A stretch of DNA of 64,000 nt, from positions 42,036,001 through 42,100,000 of the forward strand of contig CM069140.1 of the NCBI GenBank assembly GCA_035221665.1. Reading direction: 5' to 3'. The notes under the pieces are model-generated. The model did not search any database and had not been told where the DNA came from. It saw only the letters and a program-made list of their open reading frames with translations. Of the stretch, positions 128 to 62,093 are shown in pieces. Source of the DNA: Okamejei kenojei. Lineage: Eukaryota. Positions within the stretch are counted from its first letter, which is position 1. Every line of letters begins with the position of its first letter. The position numbers and the translations under genes were made by a program.

Positions 128-622
128 ATAGACACAAAAAGCTGGAGTAATTCAGCGGGACAGGCAGCATCTCTGGAGAGAAGGAATGGGTGATGTTTCG
201 GGTCGAGTCCCTTCTTCAGACTAAAAGTCATGGGAAAGGGAAACAAGAGATATAGATGATGATGTAGAGAGATATAGAACAAATGAATGAAAGATATGCA
301 AGAAAGTTACTATAAAGGAAACAGGTCAGTGTCAGCTGTAGCGAGGTGAGAAGAGAAAGCTTGTGCGACTTGGGTGCAGGAGGGATGGAGAGAGGGGGAA
401 TGCAAGGGTTACTTGAAGTTAGAGAAATTAATACTCATACCCCTGGGTTCTGAAGAAGGGTCTCGACCCAAAACATCACCCATTCCTTCTCTCCAGAGTT
501 GCTGCCTGGCCCGCTGAGTTACTCCAGCTTTTTGTGTCCATCCCCTTGGTTGTGAGATGCCAAGCAAAATATAAGTTGCTGCTCCTCCAGTTTGCGTTAA
601 GCCTCACTCTGACAATGGAGGA
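128..622 (-). mobile_element. Penelope-like element 3' fragment (GIY-YIG C-terminus, 3' region, decayed hammerhead)
   Basis: Reverse strand of 410-620 encodes remnants LHCQSEA.RKLEEQQLIF...MSINFSNFK like the endonuclease tail at 16100-16219; hammerhead-like core at 190-222 (-). Confidence 0.75.
450..538 (+). mobile_element. Short hammerhead cassette nested in opposite orientation in the Penelope-like fragment
   Basis: Starts at CTGAAGAAGGGTCTCGACCC; flanked by imperfect duplication catacccctgggtt (436-449) / catccccttggtt (539-551); GAAA mutated to AAAA. Confidence 0.7.
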
Positions 623-1167
623 ATGGTAGAATAATAAAACAAAATGACGGCAGCTAACTGTTTAGATCAGGTTTAACTAGACAGGCTGTTTTAGAAGTTT
701 AGTGCTTTTGGGATGAAATTGGCAGAATGTCTATGTCTTCGCAGTAAAAAGCTGCCTTTCAAAACAGAACATATTTGCATTCCATTGACAAGTCTCTACT
801 GTTATCTCAGATAAATGATATGTTATCCTGTCACACCTCAACTTCCGATTAGTCGGCAATCATGCTAAACTTTGGTTACAACATGATATTCCCTGCACGT
901 CGGCAGTACAGCTGTTCCCTTCAGATACTGTTCATTCGTGTATTATATCAGGTCAACGTTAAGCAAGATACCTGATTGCGAGTAATACATTATGGTGTAA
1001 TGTCATTGATAGTGGCCAATTGTTTATATGGAGCAATAATGTATCTGAATGTGAACAAATGGCCAAATAATTAAAGCTTTTTTTTTACCTTTGTCAAATA
1101 ACTGTAATAAACTCCATGAATAAAGTCAAATAATAGTAGATTGTCCTTTGAAAGAAGAAGCCTTATG

Positions 1168-3064
1168 TTTAGGGAGGAACTGCAGATGCTGGTTTAAATC
1201 GAAGACAGACACAAAATGCTGGAGTAACTCTGCAGGCAGGGCCGACCTTAAGCCAATTGGACCGATTGCTCCCAATTGGGCCCCGCGCCTAAGGGTGCCC
1301 CGCGCTAATTTTCTGTATTTCATACGGAAATACGAATTCGCGTTGTTAAATACAGCTTTTTTTAAAAAACATTACCCTTGGCTTTTTATGGATTTTTTTT
1401 AAACGAACATCAAAATAAACCGCTGTACTGACCATCAGACAAAAATGATTTGTTAACTACCACTGTTAGCACTTGTTAACAGCCAATAGTTATACAATGT
1501 GTCACCAATGCATCGATCCACATTCTTCAGTAAATGTAATTGTGTTTTGACCAAGTATCAATGACGCTGTGTTCCTTTGAATAAAATTCAAAGGAACGCG
1601 GCACCATTAATACTTGGTCAAAACACAATTACATTTACTGAGGATGTGGATCGATAGCCAAGAAAGATAGATCAAGAATGATGCAGCTGTACTGAGGGAT
1701 AGCCAAGTCTATCCCTCATTGCTAGCAGCTGATGGGACGCAGCTGTAAAGTGGGAAGTGGCTGCAAAAGGACAGCGCCACTGGGTGGGGGGAGAGTTCCT
1801 TTTACCTGTCTACTCATCTGGACGCCCTCAGCTGCGGCTGCGGATGGTTGAGGTCCCGGCCATGGGGGAAAAATGGAAAATGGAGGAGGACTGGCCAATT
1901 TTTGTGCTTTCCACCACAGTGATGAATGTGGTGGTGGATGTTTGTGTTAAATTTTTATTGTGTTTTTGTGTGTTCTTTTTTCATTGTAGCGCTGCTGGCA
2001 AATTCATTTCACTTGCACTTTATGTGCAAGTGACGAATAAAACTGACATTATTGATTATTGATATCATTGATATTTTTATATTTCACAGCCTGTGGTGAG
2101 TCTGGCCAGGGGTAAAGTTGCGGGGAGTGCACGAGCATTGAGAAGGAGGGGGTCAGGGATCATGCCAGCATCCAGCTCTAGAGCGGGTCAGCAGGCGATG
2201 GATAACAGGACAGCGGGTGGTGGAGCTTACTCCATATGTCAGTGCGAGTAACCTCAATTGGTCCCTTGTTCGCGCTGACATAGGAGTAAGCTCCACTGCC
2301 CGCTGTCCTGTTATCCATCACCCGCTGACCCACTCCACTCTATGATCATTGCTCTTGAGCTGGTCCCCTCCTTGTTCAGACAGAGAGCACTGCCAGAGGT
2401 GAGCGGGATGGCAGAAGGCCCTGAGGTCCCGGCGACCCCTCGTAGTCACGCGAGCTGCTTCCCTCACCAGCCACAATGCGGTGGCTCCGGGCCCAGAGAG
2501 CCACGGCAGCTGTGAGTGAGTGGGTTACTGGCATGATCCCCAGCCCCCTCCTTCTCAACGCTGCTGCCCTCCCCGCAACTTTACGCCTGGCCAGACTCCC
2601 CATACGCTGCGAAAGGAACTCTCCCTCCAATTGTTCCTTTGAACTAGTATTGTCATTCAATAAGATCATAACTGATTCAACTTGTCCCGGTGTGCTCCCA
2701 TTTTTCCCACCATCTCTCCACCTGCCGTCACCCTCCACTCCCTACCCATTCAGTAATTCAGAAAGAAGGAGATTTGGAAGCCTTGGGCAAATTGAACTGT
2801 TAGTTTCTTTATTTTTTATTTTTACGGAGAGGAGAACACTGCGCATGCGCAGTTTAATATTTTTTAAAAGCCGACTGACTGCCTATCCTGAGTAATTACT
2901 CATGGCATGTGCCTGAATATGACTCATTTATAATTATATATTTATATTTCTATGATAATTATTCCCAATTGGGCCCCGCACCTCCTAAGGCTAGCCCTGT
3001 CTGCGGGGTCAGGAGCATCTCTGGAGAGAAGGAATAGGTGACATTTCGGGTGGAGACCCTTCTC
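1168..3064 (-). mobile_element. Penelope-like terminal fragment split by the hAT insertion (1168-1236 and 3000-3064)
   Basis: ggaactgcagatgctgg...gctggagtaactc before and gcatctctggagagaaggaataggtgacatttcgggtggagacccttct after the insertion reconstruct the same repeat as 131-220. Confidence 0.75.
1237..2999. mobile_element. Non-autonomous hAT-type DNA transposon
   Basis: Imperfect TIRs CAGGGCCGACCTTA / TAAGGCTAGCCCTG, 8-bp TSD tctgcagg (1229-1236) / tctgcggg (3000-3007), subterminal cccaattgggccccgc at both ends; no transposase ORF. Confidence 0.75.
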
Positions 3065-3369
3065 AAGTTTAATTGTTTTGCTGCTTTCAGGCTGATGTTG
3101 TTGCTAACAGAAAGTCCTCGGGGTGCAGTGTGGCAAAAATAGTCTTTATCCTGATGCTGACCATGATTTTAAAGATATGTAAATTCGTTTTTGGAATGCA
3201 AACATCTTTTTAGCTTTGCTGATTTTATGATTGAGTTTTATGATTGTAGAAAAACACAGCTCAATGCAAATAAATTTGCAGTAACCTTGCTTCAAGGTTT
3301 ATATTCCTCCCTTAATTGTTTTCTTCTAACTTGGTCTCTCCCGGGCATGTTATCCTTTAGGCTGTGGCT

Positions 3370-6300
3370 ACATAGAAACATAGAAAATAGGTGCAGGAGG
3401 AGGCCATTTAGCCCTTCAAGGTAGCACCCACCATTCATTGTGATCATGGCTGATCATCCACAATCAATAACTCGTGCTTGCCTTCTCCACATATCCCTTG
3501 ATTCTGCTAGCCCCTAGAGCTCTATCTAACTCTCTTTAAAATTCATCCGGTGAATTGGCCTCCACTGCCTTCTGTGGCAGAGAATTCCACAAATTCACAA
3601 CTCTCTGGGTGAAAAAGTTTTTTCTCATCTTTTTTCTCATCTCCCCTTTATTCTTAGACTGTGGCCCCTGGTTCTGGACTCCCCCAACATTGGGAACATT
3701 TTTCCTGCATCTAGTTTGTCCGGTCCTTTTATGATTTTATATGTTTCTATAAGATTCCCTCTCATCCTTCTAAATTCCAGTGAATACAAGCCCAATCTTT
3801 CCAATCTTTCCTCATATGACAGTCCCGCCATCCCGGGGTTTAACCTTGTGAACCTACGCTTCATTGCCTCAAATTAGACCAAAACTGCACACAATACTCC
3901 AGATGTACTCACCAGGGCCACGTACAACTACAGAAGGACCTCTTTACTCCTACACTCAAATCCTCTCGTTATACATACTCTGTATAACACACTCATATTG
4001 CCATATCTGAGTTACGGTGTGGAGATATGAGGTAACACCTACAAAACCAACCTACAGCCGTTATGTACATTACAAAAAAGAGCAATAAGAATTATCAATA
4101 ACGTTGGATATCTTGAACATACCAATTTATTCTTCTTAAAGTCACATACACTGAAGTTCACCATCTGGTTAAATTTAAGGACTGCACAAATCATGTACAA
4201 AGCAAGAAATAATTTACTTCCAGGAAATATACAAAAACTGTTTATGGAAAGACAGGGTATAATTTGGGTATAATTTGAGAGGGGAACATAATTTGAAAAC
4301 ACTCAATGTTAGAACAACTCTTAAAAGTATGTGCATAGTAATCTGTGGGGTGAATTTGTTTACTTTCAGTGACTGGTGTACAAGGACACCCTGGTCTCGT
4401 TGCACTTCCCTTTTTCCTAATCTGACACCATTGAGATAATAATTTGCCTCCTTGTTCTTGCCGCCAAAGTGGATAACCTCACATTTATCTACATTATACT
4501 GCATCTGCCATGCATCTGCCCACTCACTCAACCTGTCCAAGTCAACTTGCTACCTCCTAGCATCCTCTTCGCAGTTCACACTGCCACCCAGCTTTGTGTC
4601 ATCTGCAAATTTGCTAGAGTTACTTTTAATCCCATCATCTAAATCATTAATATATATTGTAAATAGTTGCGGCCCCAGCACTGAGCCTTGCGGCACTCCA
4701 CTCGCCACTGTCTGCCATTCTGACAAGGACCCATTTATTCCTACTCTTTGTTTCCTGTCTGCCAACCAATTCTCTATCCAGGTCAATACCCTACCCCCAA
4801 TACCATGTGCTCTTAATTTTGCCCACTAATCTCCTGTATGGGCCCTAATCAAAGGCTTTCTGAAAGTCCTGATACATTACATCCACTGGCTCTACTTCAT
4901 CCATTTTACTTGTCACATCCTCAAAAAATTCCAGATGATTAGTCAAGCATGATTTCCCCTTCATAAATCCATGTTGACTTGGACCAATCCTTTTACTGCT
5001 ATCCAAATGTGTCGTTATTACATTTAATAATTGACTCCAGCATCTTCCCCACCACCGATGTCAGGCTAACTGATCTCTAATTCCCCGTTTTCTCTCTCGC
5101 TTCTTTCTTGAAAAGTGGGATAACATTAGCTACCCTCCAATCCACAGGAACTCATCCTAAATCTATAGAACATTACAAAATCATTACCAATGCGTCCACG
5201 ATTTCTAGAGCCACCTCCTTGAGTACCCCGGGGTGCAGACCATTAGGCCCTGGGGATTTATCAGCCTTCAGTCCCATCAGTCTACCCAATACTATTTATC
5301 ACCTAATGCAATTTTCTTTCAGTTCCTCTGTCTCCCTAGATCCTCTGTCCTCTAGTACATCTGGGAGATTGTTTGTGTCTTCTTTAATGAAGACAGAACC
5401 AAAGTACCTGTTCAAATCTTCTGCCATTTCCTTGTTCCCCATAATACCTTCACCTGTTTCTGCCTTCAAGGGACCCACATTTGTCTTTACTAATCTTTTT
5501 TCTCTTAACACACCTAAATAAGCTTTTACTATCCTTCTTTATATTCTTAGCCAGCTTACCGTCGTACGTTATCTTTTCACCCCGTATTGACCTTTTTGTT
5601 ACCTTCTGTTGTCTAAAAGTTTCCCAATCCTCTGGCTTCCCGCTACACTTTGCAATGTTAAACACCTTTTCTTTCAGTTTTATTCCATCCCTAACTTCCC
5701 TTGTCAGCCACGGTTGCTTCTTACTCCCCTTAGAATCGTTCTTCCTCTTTGGAATGAAATGATCCTGCATCTTCTGGATTATGCCCAGAAATACCTGCCA
5801 TTGATGTTCCACCATCATTCCTGCTAGGATCATTTTCCAGTCGACCTTGGCCAGCTCCTCTCTCATGCCTTCATAGTCCCCTTTGTTCAATTCCAACACT
5901 GACACTTCTGATTTAACCTTCTCCCTCTCAAATTGCAGATTAAAACTGATCATATTATGGTCACTACCTCCTAGCAGTGAATTTACCTTGAGTTATTAAA
6001 TCTGATTCATTAGACAACACTAAATCCAGAATTGTATTCTCTCTGGTAGGCTCCAGTACAAGCTGCTCTAAGAATCCATCTCGGGGGCACTCTACAAACT
6101 CCCTTTCTTAGGGGCCAAAACCAACCTGATTTCCCTAGTCTACCTGCATATTGAAATTTCCCATAACCACAGTGGCATTACCTTTGTTACATGCCAATTT
6201 TAACTCCTGCTGCAACTTGTACCCTATATCTAGGCAACTGTTTGGGGGCCTGTAGACAACTCCCGTTAGTGTCTTCTTACCTTTACAATTCCTCAATTCT

Positions 6301-6760
6301 ATCCACAGCGACTCTACATCGTAAGTCCCTATGTCACCTCTTGCAAGGGACTGAATTTCATCCCTCACCAACAGAGTAATCCCACCTCCTCTGCCTACCT
6401 GCCTGTCCTTTCTATAGGTCGTATAACCCTGCATATTCAGTTCCCAGTCCTGATCCTCCTGCAGCCATGTCTCTGCAATACCCACAATCTCATATCTACC
6501 AATCTCTAACTGAGCCTCAAGCTCATCCACTTTACTTCTTATACTTCGCACATTCATATATAATATTTTTAATCCATTACTCACCTCACCTTACACATCG
6601 ATTCCTATTTCACTTGGCCATACTCTCCTATCCCTTCGCGAGCTTTCTGCACCGTTAATACTGGTGTCTTTCTTAACTTTTACTATGCTCTCTTTTCCTT
6701 TAACTCTATCCTTGTATTTCCAATTTGTCTTCACCCCCCACTATTTAGTTTAAACCCACA
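3370..6760 (-). mobile_element. CR1-clade LINE, near-complete but frameshifted ORF2 (APE endonuclease + RT)
   Basis: ORF pieces 6135-6584 (LKILYMNVRSI..GIAETWL), 4550-4786 (GVPQGSVLGP..KFADDTKLGG), 4214-4540, 3637-3864; (CATAGAAA)n tail at 3370. Confidence 0.95.
3973..4361 (+). mobile_element. Fragment of an L2/Crack/Daphne-like LINE C-terminus inserted in the CR1
   Basis: Translates LYNTLILPYLSYGVEI*GNTYKTNLQPLCTLQKRAIRIINNVGYLEHTN, a typical post-RT region; absent from the sister CR1 at 48540-48620. Confidence 0.7.
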
Positions 6761-7628: not shown

Positions 7629-7689
7629 AGAGTTGATAAGAATCTTTTAAAACCTTTTAAAAAATAACATAAAATGGAATTGAGACAGG

Positions 7690-8510: not shown

Positions 8511-8643
8511 GATACTTTTCTTGGAGCCCCAATTGTTTACACTATTTTCAAATGGTGGCTATTTTATAATTTGGGCTTTTCTTATGAGATTACAATGGTA
8601 CAGTTGAAAAGTCATGTAGTAAAATGGGGTAGAATTGAATCAT

Positions 8644-8741
8644 AGGTAGACAAAAATGCTGGAGAAACTCAGCGTGTGCAGCAGCATCGATGAAGCTAAG
8701 GAAATAGGCAACGTTTCGGGCTGAAATCCTTCTTCAGACTG
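8644..8741 (-). mobile_element. Short hammerhead cassette (subfamily B)
   Basis: Reverse strand reads agtCTGAAGAaggatttcagcccGAAACGTTgcctatttcc...ctgagtttctccagcatttttgtctac. Confidence 0.75.
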
Positions 8742-10549: not shown

Positions 10550-12895
10550 GTTTAGTTCATCTTATTCCGACCTACAGGCAGAAACGAAAATCTGCTAAGC
10601 CTGTGGTCAGAACAATGAAAAGGTGGACGAGCGAGGGCATTGAAAACCTGCGGTCCTACTTTGACTGCATTGATTGGAATGTGATCAGGGATGCAACCCA
10701 CAAGCTTCGATGAGTATACAGACACTGTGACATCATATGTCAGCTTTTGTGAGGACGCTTGCATTCACACTAGGACCCAGATCTGGTTCAACAACAACAA
10801 GCCCTGGTTTACAGCAGAATTCAGACAGCTCTGCCAGTGTAAAGATGAGGCCTTCAGGAGCGGGGATGCAGACCTCTACAGGCAGGCCAAGTACACGCTG
10901 AGAAGAGGAATCAGAGCTGTCAAGGAAAGGTACTCTGAGAAGTTGAGGAGCAGGTTCTCAGCTAATGACTTTTCTTCAGTTTGGAAAGGCTTGCAAGAAA
11001 TCATCAGCCACAAGAGGAAAATCCCCCACTCCCTGGACAATCATCAGCTGACCAATGACCTGAACGAGTTCTACTGCAGGTTTGAAAACATAAACTTAAC
11101 CAAAGTACCCCCTCCCCAACCAACACTTCACATCTACGGACAGCCTGACTCCAGTCTGCAAAGACTGGGCCCTTTCCCACCCACCACTCTCCAATCACCA
11201 CTTAACAACCACTTACAGCCTGACTCCAGTCTGCAAAGACTGGGCCCTCGTCCACTATGCACCCCCTCCTTGCTGCCCAACATCAGTCTGGCCACTTCTC
11301 CATCACCAACAGTAGCAATTGAGGAGGTGGAGAAGCTGTTCAGAAGACAGAAAAGCCGGAAATCTCCAAGACCGGACAATGTTTCCCCCTCTACTCTCAA
11401 GCTCTGTGCCGAACGACTGGCATCGGTCTACACAGACATTTTCAACCAGTCCCTGCAAACCTGTACTGTCCCTGCCTGCTTCAAATTCTCCACTATTGTC
11501 CCTGTACCCAAAACGACAAGGATTAATGACTACAGGCCAGTCGCATTGACCTCTGTAGTCATGAAGACCCTTGAAAGTCTTGTGCTGGCCCAGCTGAAAA
11601 ATATCACAAACCCCCAGTTGGACCCTCTGCCGGTTGCATACCGGGCCAATAGATCTGTGGATGACGCAGTCAACCTGGGCCTGCACTTCATCCTCCAGCA
11701 CCTAGACCGCCAGGGAACCTATACAAGGACTTTGTTTGTTGATTTTACCTCTGCATTTAACACCATTGTGCCAGATATACTACACTCCAAACTCTCCAGG
11801 TTGACTGTGCCTGAACCCCTCTGTCAGTGGATCACAAACTTCCTGACAGACAGGAAGCAGCATGTGAGGCTGGGAAAGTGCATCTCGGACTCACAAACTT
11901 TCAGCATAGGAGCACCGCAAGGCTGCACACTCTCTCCTCTCCTTTACTCTCTCTACACCAACGACTGCACCTCCACAGACTCCTCGGTCAAGCTTCTCAT
12001 GTTTGCGGATGACACAACCCTGATTGGACTGATCCAGGATGGGGAGGAATCTGCCTACAGACAGGAAGTGACACAGCTGGCATCCTGGTGCCTTTGTAAC
12101 AACCTGGAGCTCAATGCTCTTAAGACAGTGGAATTGATAGTAGACTTTAGGAGAGCTCCCCCTCCCCTCACCCCACTCGCCATCAACAACACCACAGTCA
12201 CATCTATGGAGTCTTTTAAGTTCCTTGGAACCATCATCTCCAAGGACCTGAAATGGGGGGCCATCATCGACTCCACAGTCAAAAAGGCCCAACAGAGGAT
12301 GTACTTCCTGCGACAGCTGAGGAAACACAATCTGCCACAGGCAATGATGGTCCAATTCTATACGGCCATCGTAGAGTCTGTCCTCACCTTCTCCATCATG
12401 GTCTGGTTTGGCTCAGCCACCAAGCACGACATCCGGAGGCTGCAGCGAATCGTCCGATCAGCTGAGAAGGCTGTTGGCTGCAACCTTACCCCCATTGACA
12501 AACTGTACACTGCAAGGGAGCGAGAGGGTAAGATCATCTCTGACCCCTTTCACCCTGGCCACAATCTCTTTGAAGCACTTCTGGAACGCGACTCCAGACT
12601 GTCAAAACCGCCACAGCCAGGCATCAAAACAGCTTTTTTCCACAAGCAGTAGCTCTACTCAATAACCAAAAGACTGTAGCTTCCTTTTGCTCTGGTATTT
12701 TATTTCATTCACATGTTTAAACTATAATGTTTTATTATTAATGTTTAATGTTTTATGTGTCATTCTTAATTGTTACTGTATGTCATGTTGTTACTTGCGA
12801 GCAGAGCACCAAGGCAAATTCCTTGTATGTGTACATACTTGGCCAATAAACCTATTCATTCATTCATTCATTCATTCATTCATTCATTCATTCAT
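10550..12895 (+). mobile_element. Rex1/Babar-clade LINE, 5'-truncated, long open RT frame
   Basis: 653-aa ORF 10691-12652 with NDYRPVALTS, FVDFTSAFNTI, GAPQGCTLSPLLYSLYT, FADDTT, KKAQQRMYFLR; AATAAA then (ATTC)n tail 12854-12895. Confidence 0.92.
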
Positions 12896-15312: not shown

Positions 15313-15319
15313 TAAACTC

Positions 15320-15480
15320 ACCCACTGAGTTTCTGCAACATTTTTTGTCTACCTTCATTTGTTCCAGCATCTGCAATTCTTTCTTAACCATTTTGTCTAC
15401 CTTTGACCTGAAATATTGCCTGTCCATAGCCTCTTCAAATGCTGCCTATTCCACTGAGTTCCTTCATTGCTTTGTCTTTT
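15320..15480 (+). mobile_element. Two decayed Penelope-like terminal fragments
   Basis: ctgagtttctgcaacattttttgtctacc...ccagcatctgca and gacctgaaatattgcc...tgctgcct...ctgagttcc. Confidence 0.5.
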
Positions 15481-15749
15481 GAATAAGATTTGGCAACTTG
15501 ACAAGCCAAGCAGAATTAGTTATGTAATGGGAGAGTGCAAGAAAAGAAGGGTTAAATGATTGAAGAAAGTGAGAGATTAAAAGGGCCTACAGATCGGAAC
15601 CCATTTATGATATCATCAAGCCTGGATCCCAAGAAATTAAGTGGTCAGCAGATTTGCAGAGAGAAGGTCGAAAAAGCAACAGGTGAATCTAGTGTAGAAA
15701 GTAGACAGAAATGAGAGAAGGGCATGTACTCAAGGCTCAGCATAGAAGA

Positions 15750-16495
15750 ATGTGTAGAAAGGAACTGCTGATGCTGGATTATACTGAAGATGGACACACA
15801 GGTCTGGAGTAACTCAGTGGGTCGGGCAGCATCTCTGGAGAAAAAGGATGGGTGATGTTTCGGGTCAGGAACCTTCTTCAGATTGAAAGTAGAGGTGAGG
15901 GAACTGGCCACTATATAGGAGCCCACACCTGTGCTGAGATGGGGCAGAGGTTCACTTGCATCTCCTCCAACCTCATCTACTGTATCCTTTGTTCGCGGTG
16001 TGGGATCCCATATATCAGCTCAGTTCGCTTTGGCTTACGCAATCTCCTGGTTCAAAACATTTTAACTTCCTTTCCCATTCCCATACTGACCTTGCTGTCC
16101 TGAGCCTCCTCCACTGTCAAAATGAGGCCACACACAAATTGGAGGAAATGCACCTCAAATTTTGCTTGGGCAGCTTACAACTCAGCAATATCAATATTGA
16201 TTTCTCTCATTTCAAGTAACCCAGCATTCCCACTGCCCTCCCCTAGTCGTCCTACTAGTTCCACTGTTCACATCCTTGTATACCTTCATTCTCACCTTTT
16301 CCCCAGCCAACAATGGGCCATCATAGGTTCTACCATTCCTTGGTCATGTGTTACTGGCCCTGTTTTGTTCTGTCCTTATCCCACCTCCAGTTTACTTTCA
16401 GTCTGAAGAAGAGTCTGACCCGAAACATCGCCCATCCTCTTTCTCCAGACCCGCTGCCTGATCCGATGAGTTATTCCAGCACTTTGTCTATCTTC
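15750..16495 (+). mobile_element. Penelope-like element: inverted terminal copy + GIY-YIG endonuclease remnant + terminal repeat
   Basis: QRFTCISSNLIYCILCSRCGIPYI (GIY-YIG signature region) and HFN..SHSHTDLAVLSLLHCQNEATHKLEEMHLKFCLGSLQ...IDFSHFK; hammerhead-like cores at ~15851-15882 (-) and 16403-16429 (+). Confidence 0.88.
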
Positions 16496-16539
16496 AGCAT
16501 GAAAGAACCTTGGCCATAGATTTATAAATATTATTATAG

Positions 16540-17647: not shown

Positions 17648-17652
<5 letters not shown>

Positions 17653-18498: not shown

Positions 18499-18925
18499 CT
18501 CAGCGGGACAGGCAGCATCACCTGAGATGAATGGGTGACGTTTCGCGTCGAAACCCTTCAGACTAGAGTCAGTGGAAATGGGAAACTAGAGTTAGAGACG
18601 GTGTTGTAGAGAGATAGAGAACACATGAATGAAAGACATGCAAAAAAATAATTATAATAAAACTACGATGATAAAGGAAACAGGCCATTGTTGTTTCCTT
18701 TATCATCGTTACTTTTTAGCAAATCTTTAATTCATTAGTTCTATATCACTCTTCATCCCGGTCAATATCAGTCGTTTCCCTTTCCCCTGACTAGTCTGAA
18801 GAAGGGTCTCGACCTGAAAAGTCACCCATTCCTTCTCTCCTGAGATGCTGCCTGTCCCGTTGAGTTACTCTAGCATGTGTGCCTATCTTCGGTTTAAACT
18901 AGCATCTGCAGTTCCTCCCTACACA
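18499..18925. mobile_element. Fold-back (palindromic) Penelope-like 3' end
   Basis: Left arm matches 152-265, right arm is its reverse complement; centre acgatgataaaggaaaca-ggccattgt-tgtttcctttatcatcgt near 18686. Confidence 0.8.
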
Positions 18926-33392: not shown

Positions 33393-33429
<37 letters not shown>

Positions 33430-39379: not shown

Positions 39380-39967
<588 letters not shown>

Positions 39968-47912: not shown

Positions 47913-49136
47913 ACATAGAACCATAGAAACATAGAAAATAGGTGCAGGAGGAAGCCATTCGGCCCTTCGAGCCAGCACCGCCATTCATTGTGATCATGGC
48001 TGATCGTCCGCTATCAATAACCCGTGCCTGCCTTCTCCCCATATCCCTTGATTCCATTAGCCCCTAGAACTCGATCTAACTCTCTCCTAAATCCATCCAG
48101 TGATTTGGCCTCCACTGCCCTCTGTGGCAGGGAATTTCACAAATTCACAACTCTCTGGGTGAAAAAGTTTTTTCTCACCTCAATCTTAAATGGCCTCCCC
48201 TTTATTCTAAGACTGTGGCCCCTGGTTCTTGACTCGCCCAACATTGGGAACCATTTTTCCTGCATCTAGCTTGTCCAGTCCTTTTATAATTTTATATGTT
48301 TCTATAAGAACCCCTCTCATCTTTCTAAAATCCAGTGAATACAAGCCTAGTCTTTTCAATCTTTCCTCATATGACAGTCCCGCAATCCCAGGGATCAATC
48401 TTGTGAACCTACGCTGCAATCACAAGGATGCCTCAATCACAAGGATGTTGTTTCTCAAATTAGGAGACCAAAACTGTACACAATACTCCAGAAGTGGTCT
48501 CACCAGAGCCCTATACAACTGCAGAACAACCTCTTTACTCCTGTACTGAAATCCTTTTGTTATGAAGGTCAACATTCCATTAGCTTTCTTCACTGCCTGC
48601 TGTACCTGCACACCAACTTTCAGTGACCGGTGTACAATGACACCCAGGTCTCGTTGTACCTCCCCCTTACCTAACCTAACCCCATTGAGATAATAATCTG
48701 CCCCCTTGTTTTTGCCACATAAGTGGATAACCTCATATTTGTCTATATTATATTGCATCTGCCACGTATCTGGCCACTCACTCAAACTGTCCAGGTCACC
48801 CTGCAACCTCCTAACATCCTCTTCACAGTTCACACTGCCACCCAGCTTTGTGTCATCCACAAACTTGCTAGTGTTGCTCCTAATTCCCTCTTCCAAATCA
48901 TTAATGTATATGGTAAACAGTTATGGCCCCAACACCGAGCCTTGCGGCACTCCACTCGCCAATACCTGCAATTCTGAAAAGGACCCATTCAGTCCTACTC
49001 TTTGCTTCCTGTCTGCCAACCAATTTTCTATCCACGTCAACACCCTACCCCCATTACCATGTGCTCTAATTTTAGTCACCGGTCTCCCGTGCGGGACCTT
49101 ATCAAAGGCTTTCTGAACGTCTAGATACACTACATT
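47913..49136 (-). mobile_element. CR1 LINE, 5'-truncated (RT C-terminal half), antisense in NFIA intron 2
   Basis: YLDVQKAFDKVPH, GVPQGSVLGP, KFVDDTKLGG, LYRALVRPLLEYCVQFWSP; (CATAGAAA)n tail; same family as 3370-4880. Confidence 0.95.
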
Positions 49137-52445: not shown

Positions 52446-55398
52446 ACCATGGTCGATGGTAATGTAGGGAGAATAGGTTATCAGGGGAAAGGAATTGCGG
52501 TGTTCAGGCATAGGCTCGATAGACTGAATTGGCTTCCGTCTTTGTCATTGGGCAATATGACAAAATATAACAATGAACTCTGACATCCAATCAAAAAACC
52601 CCAAATAGTTTATTTCTCTTTCGTCAATACTGCTTTTATCCTTTGACATACAGAGACTAATGTTCTTGATAATAACCACTGCGCTAACACCTAAACTTCA
52701 CATTTAAATGAAAGATTGTAATACACTGACTAAAACCAATAATGAGAATGTTGTCCGAAAGATTTCTGATTTATCTTGCACAGTAGATTGATCTATTGTA
52801 TCTATTATTTATTATAATTTAATATTGCAGAAAATTGTGATTGCTGTTGCTAAACTGACATAAAACCCATTACTTTTAGAGTTGTTAGTTTTTGGCTTGA
52901 TGAGAAAATGCATATGGCCTGGCTCAGTAATTGATAGCAAGTAACTGTTTAGATGTTGTTCATTATTTTTGCGTTATCATAGCAGTTTGAGATTTGTCCA
53001 AATGCACAATAAATATTTAGAACAAATTAATATTTCAACAAGATATAAAGGCCATGTGCATTGGCAAGCTTGTTAAAGTGTGAAGTAGCACATATCTCCA
53101 TAATTTTATTACAGAAGAATATTTTATTTTTATAACGAATACATCCCTTGGAGAATGCCCCCAAAATAAGTAAAAGATTGCATTCAAGCATCATAAATTT
53201 GGTTGTACAGAAACATCACTGTATTAAGATTTAGATTAAAATGTGCTTAAAATGTCAATCAGTGAATGTTCAACATAAGAAAATGATTGTTTCCCATGTA
53301 TATTTACAAAGTTCATGTCTGCAAGCACCACACTGGTGTTGTACTGGAACAAAATTTCAGACATTTCTTTAGTAAATGTGTCATTGATCCCTCACCAGGT
53401 GATCAGCTGAAGGCTTGCTTTCATCTGACTTGTCGAACTATCTGGGAAGAACACGAAAGATTAGCTTTTATTTAGTATTATTATAACTAGATTTATATTG
53501 AAATACCAACATTTTTAGCCAGTTAGAGAAATCCCAATTGGTTGTTTCTAAAGAAGAAAAGTGCTGATAGTTTATTTTTTGAGACATTGGGAATAAAGCC
53601 CTTATTTAATAGGTTATCTTCATTAACCCCTAATGAGTAGCAGAGATATTTGTACTGAGTATAAAAATAAATCATCAGCCAGTGAAAGGTTAAGTAAACC
53701 CATGTGTACAGTACTGATTTAAATACAGTTGGAATTACTTGGCACTGGAAAGAATGTTCCCATTGATTGGCATCGATTGAATGACTTCAAATCTACCCAC
53801 AAGACGACTCTTTAGAACAGCTTTGGATTGTTTCTATGGTAACTGTTCTTATCCAAGCATTGACATTATCTGGAAGGGTAAAGAGAAAACCGATACCAAT
53901 CGAGGGAAATGGGGTGGTGGTGGGTAGTCGTGGGGTGTGGGGAGGCAGAGAGCGGAGGGTTTTTGTTATTTATTCATTACATGGAAACTAATTGTTTGAC
54001 ATTTGCTATTTTGAAAGAAAGATGCTTGGAGAGGGGAAAATGCATAAAATAATTTTTCATTAGTTGATGAAATTAGCGAATTAATTTTTTTTGCAATGAT
54101 TAAGAACAAAGATAAATTTGCAGTAAAGTATAATGAACATTTTTTTTTGCAAGATCCTCATTGGTGGTGTGTAATATGGATCACCAAGCAGCGATAGATT
54201 TTGGCAAAAAAGATAAAACGTCTGTACCATAGGTATAAATATAAGATATTAAAAGTGAGTTGTTAAGAGTACGAAGCTGCTCTGTAATTATCCCAGTTCT
54301 TGTTAATTATGTAATACACAATGGATACAAAAAATCAACAGTTGTATATACTCAATTCACATGCTGTACCTCAATTAATGTCAGAAAGAGGACCAAACAT
54401 AATATTCAATTTATGCCATCACCTCTTCATTGCAGGATTCAGCTGTGCTTTTCTGCTAGAAGTCAGAATTGGCTGTGTTGTCACATTCAGATATATTTTT
54501 ATATATCCGATGAGAATCGCTGGCCAATTCAATATGCACAGTGTCTGATTGACTGAAATGCTATTGGTGATTCCAAAATGCACATATCTGTCCATGGGGT
54601 ATAATAAAATATCTGGATTTGATAGCATTGAATATCTGTAAAATATGTTCTTTAATGTAATTGGGCTTGGGATATATACACCCTTAATTTTCTAATATAT
54701 ACTTGGTCCATCCTTATTTAATGTCACCTATTGCCAGAATGGTCTCTGTGATGGTCGAGGCATGCAGAATAATTAATTTGCCCATATCAATCACTTCCAG
54801 CTTCTTCTAGGCAGCAAGATAGGAAAATAAATTCTGAATTTTAGTGAACTTGCCTGTGAATAATATTGATTTACGTAAAATGTTTTGAATGTATATATTG
54901 TTTGAGAAAATCATCTTTATATCACAAATAGAATCAGTAATATTGTTTTATTGATGCTTCTTCATTGTCATAATAAGCATTTGCAAGACAGCAAGCCAAT
55001 TAATTTCCCATGAATTCAATGTCTTGTCACAAGGGGCATGTCACACACTGCAGGTACTTAAAGGACATACAGTGCCCTCCCTAATCTTTGGAACAAAGAC
55101 CCATCATTTATTTATTTGCCTCTGTACTCCACAATTTGAGATTTGTAATATAAAAAAATCACATGTGGTTAAAGTGCACTGCTAGATTTTATTAAAGGGT
55201 AATTTTATACATTTTGGTTTCACTATGTAGAAATTACAGCTGTGTTTACACCTAGTCCCACCATTTCAGGGCACCATAATGTTTGGGACACATGGCTGCA
55301 CAGGCGTTTGTAATTGCTCAGGTGTGTTTAATTGCCTCCTTAATGCAGGTATAAGAGAACTCTCAGCTACCAGTCTTTCCTCCTTGCTGTTTATCAAC

Positions 55399-56605
55399 AT
55401 GAGGACCAAAGTTGTGCCAATGAAAGTCAAAGAAGGCATTATGAGACTGAGAAACAAGAATAAAACTGTTAGAGATATCAGCCAAACCTTAGGTTTACCA
55501 AAATCAACTGTTTGGAACATCATTAAGAAGAAAGCAAGCACTGATGAGCTTACTAATCACATAGGGACTGGCAGACCAAGGAAGACCTCCACAGCTGATG
55601 ACAGAAGAATTCTCTTTATAATAAAGAAAAACCGCCAGTCCGACAGAGCAGAAACACTCTTCAGGAGACAGGTGTGGATTTGTCAATGACCACTATTCGC
55701 GGAAGACTTCATGGACAGAAATACAGAGGCTACGCTGCAAGGTGCAAACCACTGGTTAGATGCAAAATGAGGATGGCCGGATTACAGTTTGCCAAGTACT
55801 TAAAAGAGCAACCACAGATCTGGAAAAAGGTCTTGTGGACAGATGAGATGAAGATTAAAACTTATATCAGAGTGATGGCAAGAGCAAAGTATGGAGGAGA
55901 GAAGGAACTGCCCAAGATCCAAAGCATACCACCTCATCTGTGAAACACGGTTGTGGGGGGTGTTATGGCCAGGGCATGTATGGCTGCTGAGGTGGTATGC
56001 TCAGTTGTATCATCAATCTTCATTGATGCTACAACTGCAGATGGTAGTAGAATTCTGAAGTGTATAGACACATCCTATCTGCTCAAGTTCAAACAAATGT
56101 CTCAAAACTCATTGGCCGGTGGTTCATTCCACAGCCAGACAATAATCCCAAACATACTGCTAAAGCATCAAAGAAGTTTTTCAAAGCTAAAAAATTGTCA
56201 CTTCTTGAGTGGCCGTCAATCACCCGATCTGAACCCTATTGAGCATGCCTTTTATATGCTGAAGAGAAATTTGAAGTGGACTAGCCTCCAAAACAAGCAT
56301 AAGCTAAAGTTTTAAAGAAGGAACTGCAGATGCTGGAGAATCGAGGGTACACAAAAAGCTGGAGAAACTCAGCGGGTGCAGCAGCATCTAAGGAGCGAAG
56401 GAGATAGGCGACGTTTCGGGTCGAGACCCTTCTTCAGACTGCTAGGCGACGTTTCGGGTCGAGACCCTTCTTCAGACTGCTAAAGATGGCTGCAATACAG
56501 GCCTGGCAGAGCATCAGCAGAGAAGACACCCAGCAACTGGTTATGACCATGAATCGCAGACTTCAAGCAGTCATTGCATGCATAGGATGTGCAACAAAAT
56601 ACTAA
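55399..56605 (+). pseudogene. Frameshifted Tc1 DDE transposase
   Basis: MRTKVVPMKVK..ISQTLGLPKSTV (paired-like HTH), GRPRKT, WKKVLWTDE, QPDNNPKH, SPDLNPIE, ends ATKY*; several frameshifts and one insertion. Confidence 0.9.
56310..56478 (-). mobile_element. Hammerhead cassette (subfamily B) with tandem-duplicated ribozyme core inserted in the Tc1 transposase
   Basis: 7-bp TSD gctaaag (56303-56309 / 56479-56485); perfect 38-bp tandem 56405-56442 / 56443-56480. Confidence 0.85.
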
Positions 56606-59600
56606 ACATGACTACTTTCATTTACATGACATTGCTGTGTCCCAAACGTTATGGTGCCTAAAATGGGGGGATTATGTATAAACACTGCTGTAAATTCTAC
56701 ATGGTGAACCCAAAATGTATTAACATGGCCTTTATTAAAATCTGACAATGTGCACTTTAACCACATGTGATTTTTTTCTATTACAAATCTCAAATTGTGG
56801 AGTACTGAGGGAAATAAATAAATGATGGGCCTTAGTCCCAAATATTATGGAGGGCACTGTATAATTAACTATAATGATTTATATCTGTATCGTAGATTTG
56901 AATGTGTCATGTGCATCTGGGATGAAATTTAAAACATTTTGGTTGTGATTTTGGGAAATGTTCTTCTCCATACTTACTAAACATTGCACATTAAAATTTT
57001 AAAGTCTGTAATGAAATGCATTTAAAGTTAAACCCCACTGTAACTAATTTAATTTGCAGTGCTTTTCGGGGAAAAAATAGAAAGTGGGATTTGGATTCAA
57101 GTCATTGACATTTCTACTCCCTTCGCAAACTTCATTTTTATTTCTTCTGCAGTATCGAGGGTTATATTTCTCTTGCACTTTTCTGGGGGAGGCATTCATA
57201 CAAGCCGAAGCTAGTTAAACTTTAATGGGTTGGGATTTTTTCCCCCATTTCTTAGCAGCTTCAGCTAACATCTGAGAATAGACTCTTTGTATTCAGATGC
57301 CTTCTAACAAGACGCTCATTGTCTTAAGCCTTTGCCAGGAGAACACGAGCCACTGCACAGCCTTTATTGTGCAGACTCTGATTGTATTTGAACTTGATGA
57401 GGGCTGCATTTGAATTGTAGTCAGACAGTTCATCTGTAGTTTTGCATAGGCTGAGAACTAGCCAGAAATTGCCATGTTTGTCTAATTACCTCTTTAGATA
57501 AGATGAGGTGGCGGGGAAATTGCAGGGATGGGGTGGTGGGCGGAGGTTGTGGGGGTGAGGGTGAGTGTAATTGTTAATAGTTGGAAAGAAGATGATAGCG
57601 GGGAGGGAGATTTAATTGAAGTTTATCGTATGGTATAACAAAAAATATGACTGGATTACTATGGGAACTTATTGACTTATATTCTGATCAGAACCTTGCA
57701 TCAAAGAACAATGATATGTAGCTGGAATGTGGAATACAGTACGAGGTATCTATTCTCCCATCATTTATTCCTCGAGCGACTCCTCTACCACTCCCCCCCA
57801 CCCCATGCAATTAAAAATATTAAGACCACATTGAAGAAATATAGAAAACTTTTATGAAATTCTTTGTTAATTTAATGAATGCAAATTGATAACATGCATA
57901 TATTGGAGCTTGGCTGGTTGCAGGGTGTGCTGTGAAGTCTTCGAATATTATTTTAATCTCTCTGTCATCCCTGTACCCTAACATTTTGGCAAAATATCAC
58001 CTCCTGTATGTGACATCAGTTGATATCCCAAGAAGAGTCAGCGGCAATGGAAGTGCTAGTACTTCTGATTCTTGTGTAGGACTCGGGGGCAGAGACATGA
58101 CGGCCTGTATGAGGGACACAGGATGGTGGGGGAGATGAGATGAAGAGGGGGGATGGATGATCAACTTATTAAGGTTGCAGCAACAGCGTGTCATTCAGTT
58201 TTCATTAACTCTTTCATGCCTCTTGATGTGGGTAAAGCGTCAGTGTCCTGTTCTTGTAAACTACCAGCAGCACATGAATTTGGAACTGCAAAGGACAATG
58301 CATTTGGTTTTAAATATGAAAACTTAACTTAAATTGGCACTGTATTTTCAAATACAAATCGCTCCATCAATATGACTACCTGTACCACAGACAGACTGAC
58401 TGCATTTTCTGTTGCTGTTACTTAATTTGAGCATAAATTGTCCACTTGCTTGATTTGATTCTCTGTGTAATAATGTTATCAGTTTAAGATGTGACTGAGT
58501 ATTCTACATTAAATAAATTACACTGAAATTTTACCTGCCATTCCGTCATAGTTCAATTCAAAATATAAGAAGCAATCATGAGGAAAGCTTAAAAATCTAC
58601 ATAAACAAAAATTAAGAATTGTGTTTTTAAATATAGAATTAAAATATTTTTGAAGCTTGCATTGAAAATTAATTATATAAATAACGTTTTTATTGTTAAA
58701 AGCACACGTTATAGAAATCGAATAAAATCTTAGTTTCTCAAATGACCTTAATTTCATCAAAGAAAGGGAGATATCCATAATTGTAAGCATTAGGAAATTG
58801 CCATACCTAAATTTAAATCAAAGAGTCAAGCTGAGGCTTTTAGAGGCTCCATCTGTTAAGACAGGAGCAACATTGATTGTGAGTAGCTTTTTAACTTCTT
58901 GCAGTGAACGAAAACAGGATCATGATGCAGTCCGAATCCTGATTTGTTTAGCATTGTACGTGCCTAAAAAGCAGCACTTGGGCAGATGGAGCTGCTAAAT
59001 GCCTTGTCCTTTGATTTAGAGTTGGGCAGATACTTCTACATGTACAGCTTGATGGTTGCAGTCAGAACAATCAATACACTGTAAAACACAATTAACAGAA
59101 GAAATGTAAAAGAGCCTCTACTTGGTCAGTAATGCACAACACGCGGAGACTTGGACCTGAAAAGATGCCTTGGCATCCCACAATGCAACGCAGTGCCCGC
59201 AGCTGGTGGCATTTGGGAAGAGAGCATTGGTACATTGTGTTTCATGTACTCCAAAAGACTTCAAAATTAAGGATTACTTTACGGATTTGCAAAAGGCTGA
59301 ATGAGCAACACTCAAGTCCATTATTAGCATTAACTCTTTCTCACCTACGGTTAGGATTTATTCTTAAAATTGAGATTACCAGAAATAATTTCATACATTC
59401 CCACTAGAATTTTCTGCATTATTGTTAAAGATTTCCCATGAATTGAGTTTCTGAATTTACCCAAGGATATCTGAAAACATGTAATGTTTCACTGTTTGGA
59501 GAGCAAAAAAATAATTTTGGAGAAATGAAGTGACTGATTTGGCATTGACCCTCTTCCATTTGTGCAACTTTCTGATTTAAGAATACAATAATAATAATAA

Positions 59601-59842
59601 TGTGAGTAGGGAAATAGGCCCATCATGGCTGCTGCTTTATTTATTAAGACCATAGATCATCTTTTACCTCAAAGCCATGTTCCTACACTAACCTCCTATT
59701 AGTTTATTCCATTAATATATAAAACAATATACATTGATGGCGACACAGTGGAGCAATGGGTAGTGCAGATGCCTCATACCTGGGATTGATCATGACCTCA
59801 GGTGCTGTCTGAATGGAGTGAATGAGGAATGGCTAACGGCTA

Positions 59843-60352
59843 GGCACAAAGTGCTGGCGTAATTCAGTGGGACAGACAGCATCTCTGGAGAAAAAGGATG
59901 TGTGACGTTTTGGGTTGGTATCCTTCTTTAGACTGAAAGTATAGGGGAGGGAACTGGAGGTAATAAAAAGCCAGAACAAAGCAGGGCTGGCAACAGGTGA
60001 CCAAGGAAGGATGGAGCCCTTAATGGCACATTGTTGGCTGGTGAAGAGGTGATAATGAAAGGATACAAGGATGCAGACAGTGGAATTAGGAGTCTGAAGA
60101 AGGGTCTCGACCCGAAACGTCGCCTATCTCCTTCACTCCTTAGATGCTGCTGCACCCGCTGAGTTTCTCCAGCTTTTTGTGTAACCCCCAACAGTGGAAT
60201 TAGTAGGATGACTAGGATGGGGGAGGGAGGGAATGCAAGGGTTACTTGAATTTAGATAAATCATGTTTATACCATTGGGTTGTAAGCAGCCCAAGCGAAA
60301 TATGGGGTGCTATTCCTCCAAATTGTGCGTGTCCTCACTCTGACAGTGGAGG
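59843..60352 (-). mobile_element. Penelope-like 3' fragment
   Basis: Reverse strand encodes LHCQSEDTHNLEE*HPIFRLGCLQPNGINMIYLNSS-like endonuclease tail; decayed hammerhead ~59901-59935. Confidence 0.8.
60090..60190 (+). mobile_element. Hammerhead cassette (subfamily B) with intact core
   Basis: Perfect 13-bp TSD acagtggaattag (60077-60089 / 60191-60203); core CTGAAGA-A-GGGT-CTCG-ACCC-GAAACGTC at 60094-60121. Confidence 0.88.
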
Positions 60353-60888
60353 ACTAGTGTAGATGGGGCATCTTGTTGGGCATGTGCCCGCTGGGCCAAA
60401 GAGCCTGCTTTCTGTACTATATGACAGGCTGAACATATAATTGCATTTCTCCGCCATCTCCTTATTTCACAGTATAATTTTTACTTTTTGTCAGGGACCT
60501 ACGTTAGCCAATCTATTTTTCTTTGCATATATTCTCAGAAACTTTTGAAGTTTGTTTTTTTATGTTTCTTGCTAGTTTTATATTTCACATTTCCTTTCAT
60601 AGAAGCTCTGGCCCTTTGCTGAATTCTGAAATTTTCTCAATCCTCAAAAATACTGCTTACCGTTGGAAATTTTAAATGCATTTTCCTTTCATCAATTAAC
60701 TTTAACTTTAACTTCTCTTGATAGCCACAGCTGCACCTCTTTTCCTGATTGTCCATTTTTTATTTAAAGGGATATATGTTGCCTGTAAACTGTGCATTCA
60801 TTGTTTAAATGTTAAATATTACTTCTTTAATGTCATATCTTTTCATAGTTTCCTAATCTATCATAGCCAAATGATGCCTCCTATCTTT

Positions 60889-60945
60889 TTATTCCTTCGC
60901 TCCATAGATGCTGCCTCACCGCTGATTTCTCCAGCATTTTTGTCT
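60889..60945 (+). mobile_element. 57-bp truncated cassette (subfamily B, ribozyme core absent) inside a probable old LINE remnant
   Basis: 11-bp TSD ctcctatcttt (60878-60888 / 60946-60956); ttccttcgctccatagatgctgcc..ctgatttctccagcatttttgtct. Confidence 0.7.
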
Positions 60946-61129
60946 CTCCTATCTTTCTGTTGTGTTTTAAGACACTGCATATAAGACACTGCTTTCAGTT
61001 TGATCTGTATCACTTTCAGTCTTTGATAACATTTTTAAACATTATTATCGATGTTCCCTAAAGGATACTTATCCACCAGATCATCAATAATCCTTTCTCA
61101 TTAAAATATTAAATCCAACATGGCAACTT

Positions 61130-62093
61130 TCAGCACCTCATATTTCGCGTGGGCAGCTTACACCCCAGCAGTATGAATATTGACTTCTCTAACTTTGTAA
61201 CGCTTGCTTTCCTTCTTTCTCCATCCCCCCCCTCCCCTTCCCAGTTCTCCAATCAGTCTGACTGTCCCTTTGATTACATTGTATCTCTATTTGCTTTGTT
61301 GTCACCACACCTAGCTGACTACATTCTCCTTGATCTGCATTTATTTTGATCTCTTCTACTTCCTTATCTCCATAAAGGGCCTATCCCACTGCGAGGACCT
61401 AATTTGCGAGTTTAGAAGAGTTTGCGCTCGACTCAAACTCGAAGCATGGTCGACACATGGTCCTAGGAGGTCTATGTAACTCTCCTTCATGCTCGAGAGA
61501 AGTTCCCGCATACTCGAGGCCTCAATTTGGTCGAGGAGTATTTTTCAACATGCTGAAAATTGTCCGCATGTAAAAATTGTCGGCATGGAAAAAATCTATA
61601 TATTTTTGTACTCGTAGGTTTAGTCGAAGTAGGTCGTAGTAGGTCGGCATGTTATTCCTAGGTAATCAAACACAATCGAAGGAAATCGAAGGTAGTCTAA
61701 GTTATCGTATATAGTGTTAGTATAGTCGAAGGTGGTCGTCTTCACTCTCCACTATTCGGTGTCCAATTTTCCCGAAGCTCGTCGAAGCTAGTCTTCAACA
61801 TAGTCGAAAGAGATCGAAGGAGGTCTTCTACATAGTCGAAGGAGGTCTTCTACATATTCGTAGGAGGTTCTCTACATAGTCAAAGGAGGTCGTAGGCGGT
61901 GTTCTACTTCGGCGATACAACAAGACCATGACACTTTTAAAAACTCCCAAACTCTTCTAAACTCGCAAATTAGGTCCCCGCAGTGGGACAGGCCCTTTAC
62001 TCTTTCTCCCTGGCGCTCAGTCTCAAGCAGGGTCTCGATCAGCATGTTGTGGCCATCTTTGGTGTAAACCAGCATCTGCAGTTCCTTCCTACA
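61130..62093 (+). mobile_element. Penelope-like 3' fragment split by a MITE
   Basis: QHLIFRVGSLHPSSMNIDFSNF at 61131-61200; resumes after 61999 with decayed core and ccagcatctgcagttccttcctaca. Confidence 0.75.
61375..61997. mobile_element. Non-autonomous DNA transposon (MITE) with ~50-bp TIRs
   Basis: aagggcctatcccactgcgaggacctaatttgcgagtttagaagagtttg / caaactcttctaaactcgcaaattaggtccccgcagtgggacaggccctt, flanked by TA; internal gtcgaag-rich repeats. Confidence 0.85.

Follow-up and report, generated by a model that had tools for sequence, protein, structure and literature searches.

Short hammerhead-bearing cassettes in a 64-kb window of the Okamejei kenojei genome: terminal modules of Penelope-like elements, probably of Neptune type, with a preferred 5' end at the ribozyme core

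The window analysed here comprises 64,000 nt of the genome of Okamejei kenojei (GenBank assembly GCA_035221665.1, contig CM069140.1, positions 42,036,001 to 42,100,000 of the forward strand; all coordinates below are those of the window). It is animal DNA of 38% GC content with an exon of a Nuclear factor I gene, remnants of long interspersed nuclear elements (LINEs) as well as DNA transposons, and it carries a family of short, dispersed cassettes built around a minimal hammerhead ribozyme motif. Judged by their sequences, the cassettes are the terminal module (pseudo-long terminal repeat, pseudo-LTR) of Penelope-like elements (PLEs), probably of Neptune type, and their 5' ends favour a position just ahead of the ribozyme core.

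Positions within the cassette are numbered from the C of CTGAAGA (+1; the preceding base is -1), so that the predicted cut falls between +28 and +29; 3' ends are assigned to site 1 (+89 to +98) or site 2 (+125 to +137). A pattern scan with the 28-nt hammerhead motif, allowing up to three mismatches, gave six matches in the window, of which three were exact (56448-56475 and 56410-56437, minus strand; 60094-60121, plus strand), and none in 100 shuffles. Copies were then collected by self-BLAST and with a profile made from 10 window copies; the 22 resulting rows (20 with E<0.001) were resolved into 15 insertion events (A to O) with 18 arms, which together account for 5.5% of the window (about 3.55 kb). 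Not counted among the arms were K's upstream unit and the second, older piece of E. The events are as follows.

115-632, minus strand: copy A, a 5'-truncated PLE with the C-terminus of a GIY-YIG endonuclease (632-412), 3' untranslated region (UTR), core (219-192) and site-1 3' end; host of cassette B
449-541, plus strand: cassette B, subfamily 1, from -1 to +93, antisense within the GIY-YIG end of A; core broken (GAAA to AAAA)
1165-1242, minus strand: cassette C, 3' half, reaching site 2
2999-3068, minus strand: cassette C, 5' half, from about +3; the halves are separated by a 1.76-kb element (1243-2998) with an 8-bp target-site duplication (TSD; one mismatch)
8637-8741, minus strand: cassette D, subfamily 2; similarity from -4 to about +98; no TSD found
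15318-15476, plus strand: E, a subfamily-2 piece of some age (+63 to site 2) with a still older, decayed copy after it; its 5' end adjoins another repeat
15746-15910, minus strand: F-, inverted arm from about -27 to site 2, core 15881-15854
15951-16500, plus strand: F+, a 5'-truncated PLE with the longest GIY-YIG remnant of the window (15951-16216), 3' UTR, decayed core at 16403 and site-1 3' end
18499-18925: G, a head-to-head pair: G- at 18499-18700 begins at about -130, and G+ at 18690-18925 runs from about -105 to site 2
19981-20042, plus strand: H, a core-less copy from +33 to +93, without TSD
20180-20305, minus and plus strand: I, an inversion-type insertion; a minus-strand tail segment (20180-20212) is joined through a GAAGA overlap to a plus-strand segment from about +3 to +95
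32472-32652, both strands: J, a core-less head-to-head pair; J- starts at +25 and J+ at about +31
56310-56478, minus strand: cassette K, subfamily 2, from -3 to about +125, within a Tc1-type transposase gene; two intact cores (56475-56448 and 56437-56410)
59841-60387, minus strand: L, a 5'-truncated PLE with GIY-YIG end (60387-60250), 3' UTR and broken core at 59931; host of cassette M
60090-60190, plus strand: cassette M, subfamily 2, with an extra G followed by -3 to about +90; intact core (60094-60121); antisense in the 3' UTR of L
60889-60945, plus strand: N, a core-less subfamily-2 copy from about +31 to +89
61131-62093, plus strand: O, a 5'-truncated PLE with GIY-YIG end (61131-61196), 3' UTR, decayed core at about 62022 and site-2 3' end

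An earlier note, made from the sequence alone, had listed 13 places with copies, and each of the 13 holds one, with two changes in detail. The cores near 56407 and 56445 are both present and belong to a single insertion: a second, independent event in K was rejected, as the two cores go back to one local duplication, perfect over its 38 bp, which takes in 4 bases of the flank. The copy at 3040 is the 5' half of cassette C only, with its 3' half at 1165-1242.

The C-terminus of GIY-YIG lies in sense upstream of the core in four copies (A, F+, L and O), with a pyrimidine-rich 3' UTR in between, and the Penelope origin that the note had proposed from such remnants was thereby borne out. The remnant of F+ matched the elasmobranch gene model P0028 with an E-value of 3e-17 and had 53 relatives at E<=0.001; the matches of A, L and O were weaker. 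One of these relatives, P0035, led to 51 longer proteins (729-958 aa, 31-49% identity), most of them with a reverse transcriptase domain (RVT_1), and 48 of 55 relatives checked contain the CX2-5CxxC linker ahead of the GIY motif that marks the Neptune and Nematis clades (PMC8557442; published work is cited throughout for the passages covered). The proteins nearest to the endonuclease remnants were from Leucoraja, Hypanus and Rhincodon in nine of ten look-ups, and also from Rhinoraja, which points to an elasmobranch and probably a skate as host. Four of seven relatives matched the Pfam GIY-YIG model below its curated cut-off, two window fragments searched alone gave no Pfam match, and a word-based protein search with a 54-aa remnant gave none either. 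The inverted pairs F, G and J and the inversion I are arrangements of the kind typical of PLEs (PMC8557442). The sense GIY-YIG ends, the linker-bearing relatives and the head-to-head arms together therefore place the cassettes, by sequence comparison, as terminal modules of PLEs, probably of Neptune type; the clade is assigned via the relatives, because the window remnants all stop short of the linker and no reverse transcriptase remnant was found in the window.

The core has the motif of a minimal type I hammerhead as found in PLEs (PMC4209133), with a loop-less stem III (ACGU), as the note had recognized. It is fully intact (CUGANGA, GAAA, ACGU palindrome and 4-bp stem II) in three of ten cores scored, i.e. 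both cores of K and that of M; the core of D is nearly intact (three of four pairs in stem II), whereas in the remaining six the palindrome, GAAA or CUGA is gone. Helix I comprises 0-2 bp in all ten, short of the 4-5 bp of most metazoan minimal motifs, and a helix I of 2 bp is described for Penelope of Drosophila virilis (PMC4209133). In all four copies folded from -4 to +50, the prediction favours, by 5-8 kcal/mol over the hammerhead-compatible fold, a rival hairpin in which the core purine run pairs with pyrimidines past the cut site. The hammerhead is predicted to be inactive as a monomer; dimer cleavage is on record (Lunse et al., as cited in the review PMC6765202), and cofolding of M with itself did not yield a dimer hammerhead. 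RNAalifold kept one 4-bp hairpin in nine copies, with no compensatory changes, and six single folds were no more stable than shuffles (z -1.4 to +0.7), so neither covariation nor stability lends support to a conserved structure. An Rfam scan of the window at E<=5 gave ten matches, all under their gathering scores and none to a hammerhead model; the top matches were inverted-repeat DNA matching microRNA models. In three of four site-2 copies folded, a AGAUGCUG/CAGCAUCU stem is predicted to close the tail region. An open frame across the subfamily-1 cassette was considered and dropped, as it is not kept in subfamily 2. Pattern scans gave no match in viral contigs or metagenomes, and scans of prokaryote genomes gave none and then one, which was taken as chance, without a hammerhead upstream.

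TSDs were searched for all 15 events against a null of 400 random boundary pairs. Exact TSDs were found for M (13 bp; 60077-60089 and 60191-60203), N (11 bp) and K (7 bp; 56303-56309 and 56479-56485), and 10-bp TSDs with one mismatch for B (440-449 and 542-551) and J (6 bp exact); a 7-bp exact candidate for event F was distrusted because one copy of the duplication lies inside the element. The search revealed nothing convincing for the other nine events, among them D (at 8741). By comparison, the 400 random pairs showed exact duplications of at least 7 bp 9 times and of at least 9 bp never, while one-mismatch duplications of at least 10 bp turned up 3 times. The limits of B and M are firm because both are antisense insertions inside older PLE ends.

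The end positions of the arms were read by eye from the alignments. The 5' ends of the 18 arms fall into the open reading frame (ORF; 4 arms), into the UTR (3 arms; -130, -105 and -27), between -4 and +3 (6 arms; B, C, D, I, K and M), between +25 and +33 (4 arms; H, J-, J+ and N) and at +63 (1 arm). Six starts within 7 nt among the 14 arms that begin within -135 to +65 correspond to p=0.0005 under uniform and p=0.0006-0.015 under exponential truncation; the +25 to +33 cluster (p=0.01-0.09) is weak. The data thus support a non-random 5' boundary just ahead of the core, with the predicted cut about 30 nt further downstream. This is in accord with the note, which had four short insertions starting 0-4 nt upstream of the core (450, 8741, 56478 and 60090, now placed at -1, -4, -3 and, with an extra G, -3) and TSDs on three of these and on the core-less copy at 60889; for 8741 the similarity does begin at -4, although the boundary is not fixed by a TSD. 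Discrete 3' ends, in turn, had been missed: with G- and I left out, nine of 16 arms end at site 1 and seven at site 2, with none between, and these two clusters about 35-40 nt apart match the optional 30-40-nt tail of PLEs.

For a check of the 5' boundary on a larger scale, contigs from four of 24 sequencing runs were aligned to copy A (100-445) at 85% likeness, i.e. 173,477 contigs of DNA run X1 and 192,482 contigs of DNA run X7, from two species, and those of two further, smaller runs of ambiguous RNA or DNA nature, which were used for no inference on expression or splicing. The loose-end figures refer to the best 24 of 1499 rows (six per run), with the DNA runs counted only partly. Among these rows, the top upstream loose end is at -3 in all four runs (1505, 1211, 186 and 204 contigs), and -2 is second in both DNA runs (632 contigs in X1, 537 in X7). 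Letter agreement beyond -3 is 0.32-0.37 in the four runs (0.32-0.33 for the DNA runs); it is higher at +41, the point of divergence of a subfamily (0.51-0.54), and at the 3' end, past which the tail is often present (0.38-0.50). Six of the best 15 of 310 joints involve -3 (three strand reversals, two head-to-tail joints and one skip), and the main head-to-tail joint, from the site-1 end to -3, was seen in 22 and 23 contigs. The promoter initiator consensus is YYANWYY, and the majority letters around -3 fit it with A(-3) as its +1.

A third subfamily was also seen in the contigs, diverging at +41 (window position 179) with a loose-end agreement of 0.51-0.54 in three runs; it was not seen as such in the window.

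Ordinary random 5' truncation, with the cluster a product of chance and of the end of similarity between PLE families, is a poor explanation of these ends. The sample is small, the steepest null model without D leaves p at up to 0.06, the choice of copy A as reference biases the contig alignment, and most PLE insertions are indeed 5'-truncated single repeats (bioRxiv 10.64898/2026.07.22.740005, PMC4209133); yet B, K and M are bounded by TSDs in known host sequence, C and I have clear junctions, and in both species -3 and -2 far exceed the remaining upstream positions, the letters past them being close to random.

That the cassettes are by-products of PLE reverse transcription is, in our judgement, likely. 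The explanation draws on the lizard PLE, in which reverse transcription starts internally at two sites that bound the 30-40-nt tail, one of them lying 111-118 nt behind the beginning of the ORF, itself at the core (about +117 to +124 in the present numbering, counted on the printed template); the first 172 nt of this ORF are required, and the main template is unprocessed, uncut RNA (PMC11167929). By analogy, the PLE protein would start reverse transcription at either of two sites in the first pseudo-LTR, about 90 or 130 bases past the core, on an uncleaved PLE transcript that the hammerhead leaves intact, and would run off the 5' end of the RNA at a predicted transcription start, the A three bases before the core. 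If downstream RNA is needed, priming should be favoured where the ORF follows a pseudo-LTR, that is, first at the front of the transcript; the 95-135 nt then copied would yield an excess of short stubs flanked by TSDs, which share one 5' end and have either of two 3' ends. Such cassettes would be dead ends and not self-copying short interspersed nuclear elements (SINEs), because they lack the RNA past the start of reverse transcription, for which the need is likewise taken from the lizard PLE. Priming at a later repeat of a tandem transcript may give the long copies with 3' UTR and GIY-YIG remnants, the +25 to +33 starts may derive from cut RNA or from stalling at the fold, and the extra G at the -3 junction of M is as a copied cap would give. 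A reverse transcriptase stop at the ribozyme fold, as suggested in the note, fits the -4 to +3 ends poorly, because an enzyme moving 3' to 5' would stall on the 3' side of the fold (+29 to +45), though it could explain the weaker +25 to +33 cluster.

The weakest part of this explanation is -3 as the transcription start, and for the full statement, by-products plus an RNA start at -3, the chances appear even. Several points weigh against it. Without D, which has no TSD, the -4 to +3 cluster has p=0.004-0.06. An extra G is present at only one of three TSD-bounded core-start junctions, and the commonest letter beyond -3 in the contigs is the element's own C, not G. The start at -3 is predicted from contigs and genomic copies, and the sharpness of the boundary there is partly a matter of the reference: at -4, -6 and -12 the letters of copy A are not those of the majority, which makes ends between -4 and about -9, and families with other UTRs, pile up at -3, and the loose-end consensus carries traces of 3' UTRs of other families. 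In D. virilis, transcription begins further upstream, at a distance of 46 nt plus an intron of 75 nt (PMC2377424), and the two arm ends of G (-105 and -130) are near this spacing. The requirement of the protein is known from a Poseidon element in vitro and not from Neptune, and the data analysed contain no full-length element of the cassette family. Finally, a pyrimidine tract (77-82% C/T) plus YAG directly precedes the core in all five long copies, the AG of this acceptor-like YAG is mutated in F-, and the D. virilis intron ends at helix I (PMC4209133).

The last observations lead to the main rival, because the bases around -3 double as a 3' splice site: the by-products would be the same, but the 5' end would reflect a roadblock or drop-off of the reverse transcriptase at the 3' splice site/pyrimidine-tract boundary of a longer, unspliced RNA (bound splicing factors, for example), followed by joining through microhomology. 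We regard this as somewhat unlikely. It accounts for the tract and AG of the long copies and for the scatter of ends from -4 to +3, with B, K and I joined through 1-5 shared bases, and the D. virilis intron is retained in genomic copies (PMC4209133, PMC2377424). On the other hand, there is no splice-type joint ending at the core among the best 15 of 310, though contigs cannot exclude one; the -3 head-to-tail joints would suit template jumping from an RNA end, and the acceptor look may be incidental because the whole 3' UTR is pyrimidine-rich.

A retrozyme, in which self-cleaved, circularized RNA monomers are copied into the genome, had also been suggested, and is highly improbable. The minimal hammerhead motif, the four of 18 arms that start at +25 to +33 and some of the head-to-tail joints among contigs would be expected of it, but a self-cleaved template would start at +29, and the main 5' end precedes the cut by 31 nt. 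Monomers in the window are dispersed and show no circular permutation, the sole tandem there is the local duplication in K, and helix I of 2 bp and the less stable hammerhead-compatible fold also speak against a retrozyme. No loose-end row near +29 is among the top six of either DNA run; the +29 class is therefore smaller per position, or absent.

The two subfamilies that the note had distinguished stand: D, K and M separate from the other seven of ten rows in the tree with a support of 99/98, and nothing else is resolved. A self-propagating SINE-like mini-element, transcribed from an internal promoter at -3 and copied in trans by the PLE protein, at least for subfamily 2, is unlikely. Identity between K and M reaches 98%, their cores are intact and their TSDs clean, long copies are missing from subfamily 2 in the window (0 of 5, compared with 7 of 13 in subfamily 1), and the summed depth of the module in the contigs exceeds that of the best-covered bin upstream by a factor of about 18-29, a figure that is not a copy number. 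The difference in long copies, however, has a Fisher p of 0.10 only; K and M end at different 3' sites; and the cassettes lack the sequence past the start of reverse transcription that the lizard template needs (PMC11167929). A tRNA search of the cassette gave no match, there was no match of tRNA, 5S or 7SL type in Rfam at gathering level, and no A or B box was found by eye against the consensus. In subfamily 1, the short copies B and I match the long copy A (94% and 93%) as closely as each other (92%), and short and long copies are interleaved, with label shuffles equally low in 197-213 of 500; a separate SINE-like lineage, which the note had envisaged, is not supported by sequence for subfamily 1. 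A composite reading is doubtful: that the genome keeps a very large record of PLE template ends, in which most short copies extend from a capped -3 start to either start of reverse transcription, with priming in the first pseudo-LTR of uncut RNA as the main PLE output, that the +29 class records cleavage in vivo, and that subfamily 2 is a free mini-element of about 95-130 nt made up solely of a silenced hammerhead and a hairpin at the reverse transcription start.

The components of the cassettes are known from other systems, as are pseudo-LTR hammerheads and the multitude of single motifs that truncated PLEs leave behind (PMC4209133), solo pseudo-LTRs (PMC3846280), pseudo-LTR-derived retrozyme monomers, including those of one chondrichthyan genome (bioRxiv 10.64898/2026.07.22.740005), retrozymes (PMC7229834) and hammerhead SINEs (PMC6765202). 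Among the closest systems are the minimal-hammerhead pseudo-LTRs of endonuclease-bearing (EN+) PLEs (Cervera and de la Pena 2014, PMC4209133; Neptune clade, PMC8557442), which share the sense hammerhead past the GIY-YIG end, the loop-less palindromic stem III, the extra base between positions 9 and 10.1, mostly single dispersed motifs, head-to-head arms and the optional 30-40-nt tail. The 2-bp helix I is shared with D. virilis Penelope, whereas stem II has 4 bp in the cassettes and 6-8 bp in Schistosoma and D. virilis (PMC4209133); a core-edge 5' end with units of about 95 and 130 nt is undescribed in the passages covered of these papers. The Poseidon element of Anolis carolinensis, PAc (Frangieh et al. 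2024, PMC11167929), is alike in its two 3' ends, which differ by one tail and of which the distal lies 120-135 nt from the core, in the GAAACGUC end of the core, and in a hammerhead that is apparently uncut in the template; it belongs to another clade, the cassettes have no AUG where stem II begins, and the passages covered treat the starts of reverse transcription, not the points where copies stop. Non-LTR retrozymes (PMC7229834; bioRxiv 10.64898/2026.07.22.740005) are likewise short, non-coding, hammerhead-bearing kin of PLE pseudo-LTRs with solo monomers, but are defined by tandem units, canonical or minimal type I hammerheads and circular RNAs set by cleavage, whereas the cassettes are dispersed monomers whose end precedes the cut by 31 nt and whose helix I is minimal; tandems of at least two whole units, as in retrozymes, do not occur in the window, and whole-unit head-to-tail joints were seen elsewhere, in 22 and 23 contigs. 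The SINE-like elements of Schistosoma (PMC6765202) are also short retroposed hammerhead-bearing units; there a promoter part precedes the ribozyme, whereas the cassettes start at the core without a tRNA-like head.

What seems new is the preferred 5' end at the edge of the core, which is testable. The literature search found neither this end nor the cassette family; it did not extend to subscription papers, Dfam, Repbase or the supplements of bioRxiv 10.64898/2026.07.22.740005, which may list the family. The role of the hammerhead in PLEs and the origin of pseudo-LTRs are open questions (PMC8557442, PMC11167929), and the abundance of the family (more than 170,000 contigs per DNA run) lets template starts and stops be read from the genome. 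A -3 peak with an extra G, if true, would locate the promoter and demonstrate that the RNA copied is uncut; a +29 peak, if true, would be evidence of cleavage in vivo, which RNA-seq did not give for the lizard element. For repeat annotation, such stubs resemble SINEs and are probably by-products.

Apart from the cassettes, several features of the window and of related sequences were recorded. In the elasmobranch gene models P0003, P0012, P0027 and P0028, the GIY-YIG end of a PLE is fused to other sequence; these fusions are probably annotation artefacts, and may represent exonization of this end. A search with P0003 was set aside: it gave neuromedin-U receptors, because this model consists of a host protein plus a PLE-like end. 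The GIY-YIG stop codon lies in a donor-like CAA|GTAACC motif in A (411-416), F+ (16214-16219) and L (about 60240-60245), 190-280 nt upstream of the acceptor-like AG at the core, and no joint matching this motif was among the best 15 of 310 contig joints. Cassettes B and M are both antisense in older PLE ends, though remnants of such ends make up only about 3% of the window; PLEs are reported to target their own ends.

The exon for the Nuclear factor I DNA-binding domain is located at 39380-39967 (plus strand; Pfam NfI_DNAbd_pre-N and MH1), and no PLE copies were found around it between 32.7 and 56.3 kb. Copies K to O probably sit in the intron after this exon, with M (intact core) in sense to the gene. 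A 655-codon open frame of a LINE reverse transcriptase is present at 10685-12649 (plus strand), and LINE remnants at 3371-6590 and 47913-49135, presumably CR1/L2-like from their translations. The element within cassette C (1243-2998), which we take to be hAT-like, has short CAGGG ends and nested hairpins at 1512-1655, 2181-2335 and 2082-2614. Copy O is split by an element at 61373-61999 whose inverted ends of 52 bp are 96% identical and which carries a tandem repeat of 22 bp inside, and the host of cassette K is a decayed Tc1-type transposon (55067-56862) with inverted ends of about 226 bp that are 87% identical.

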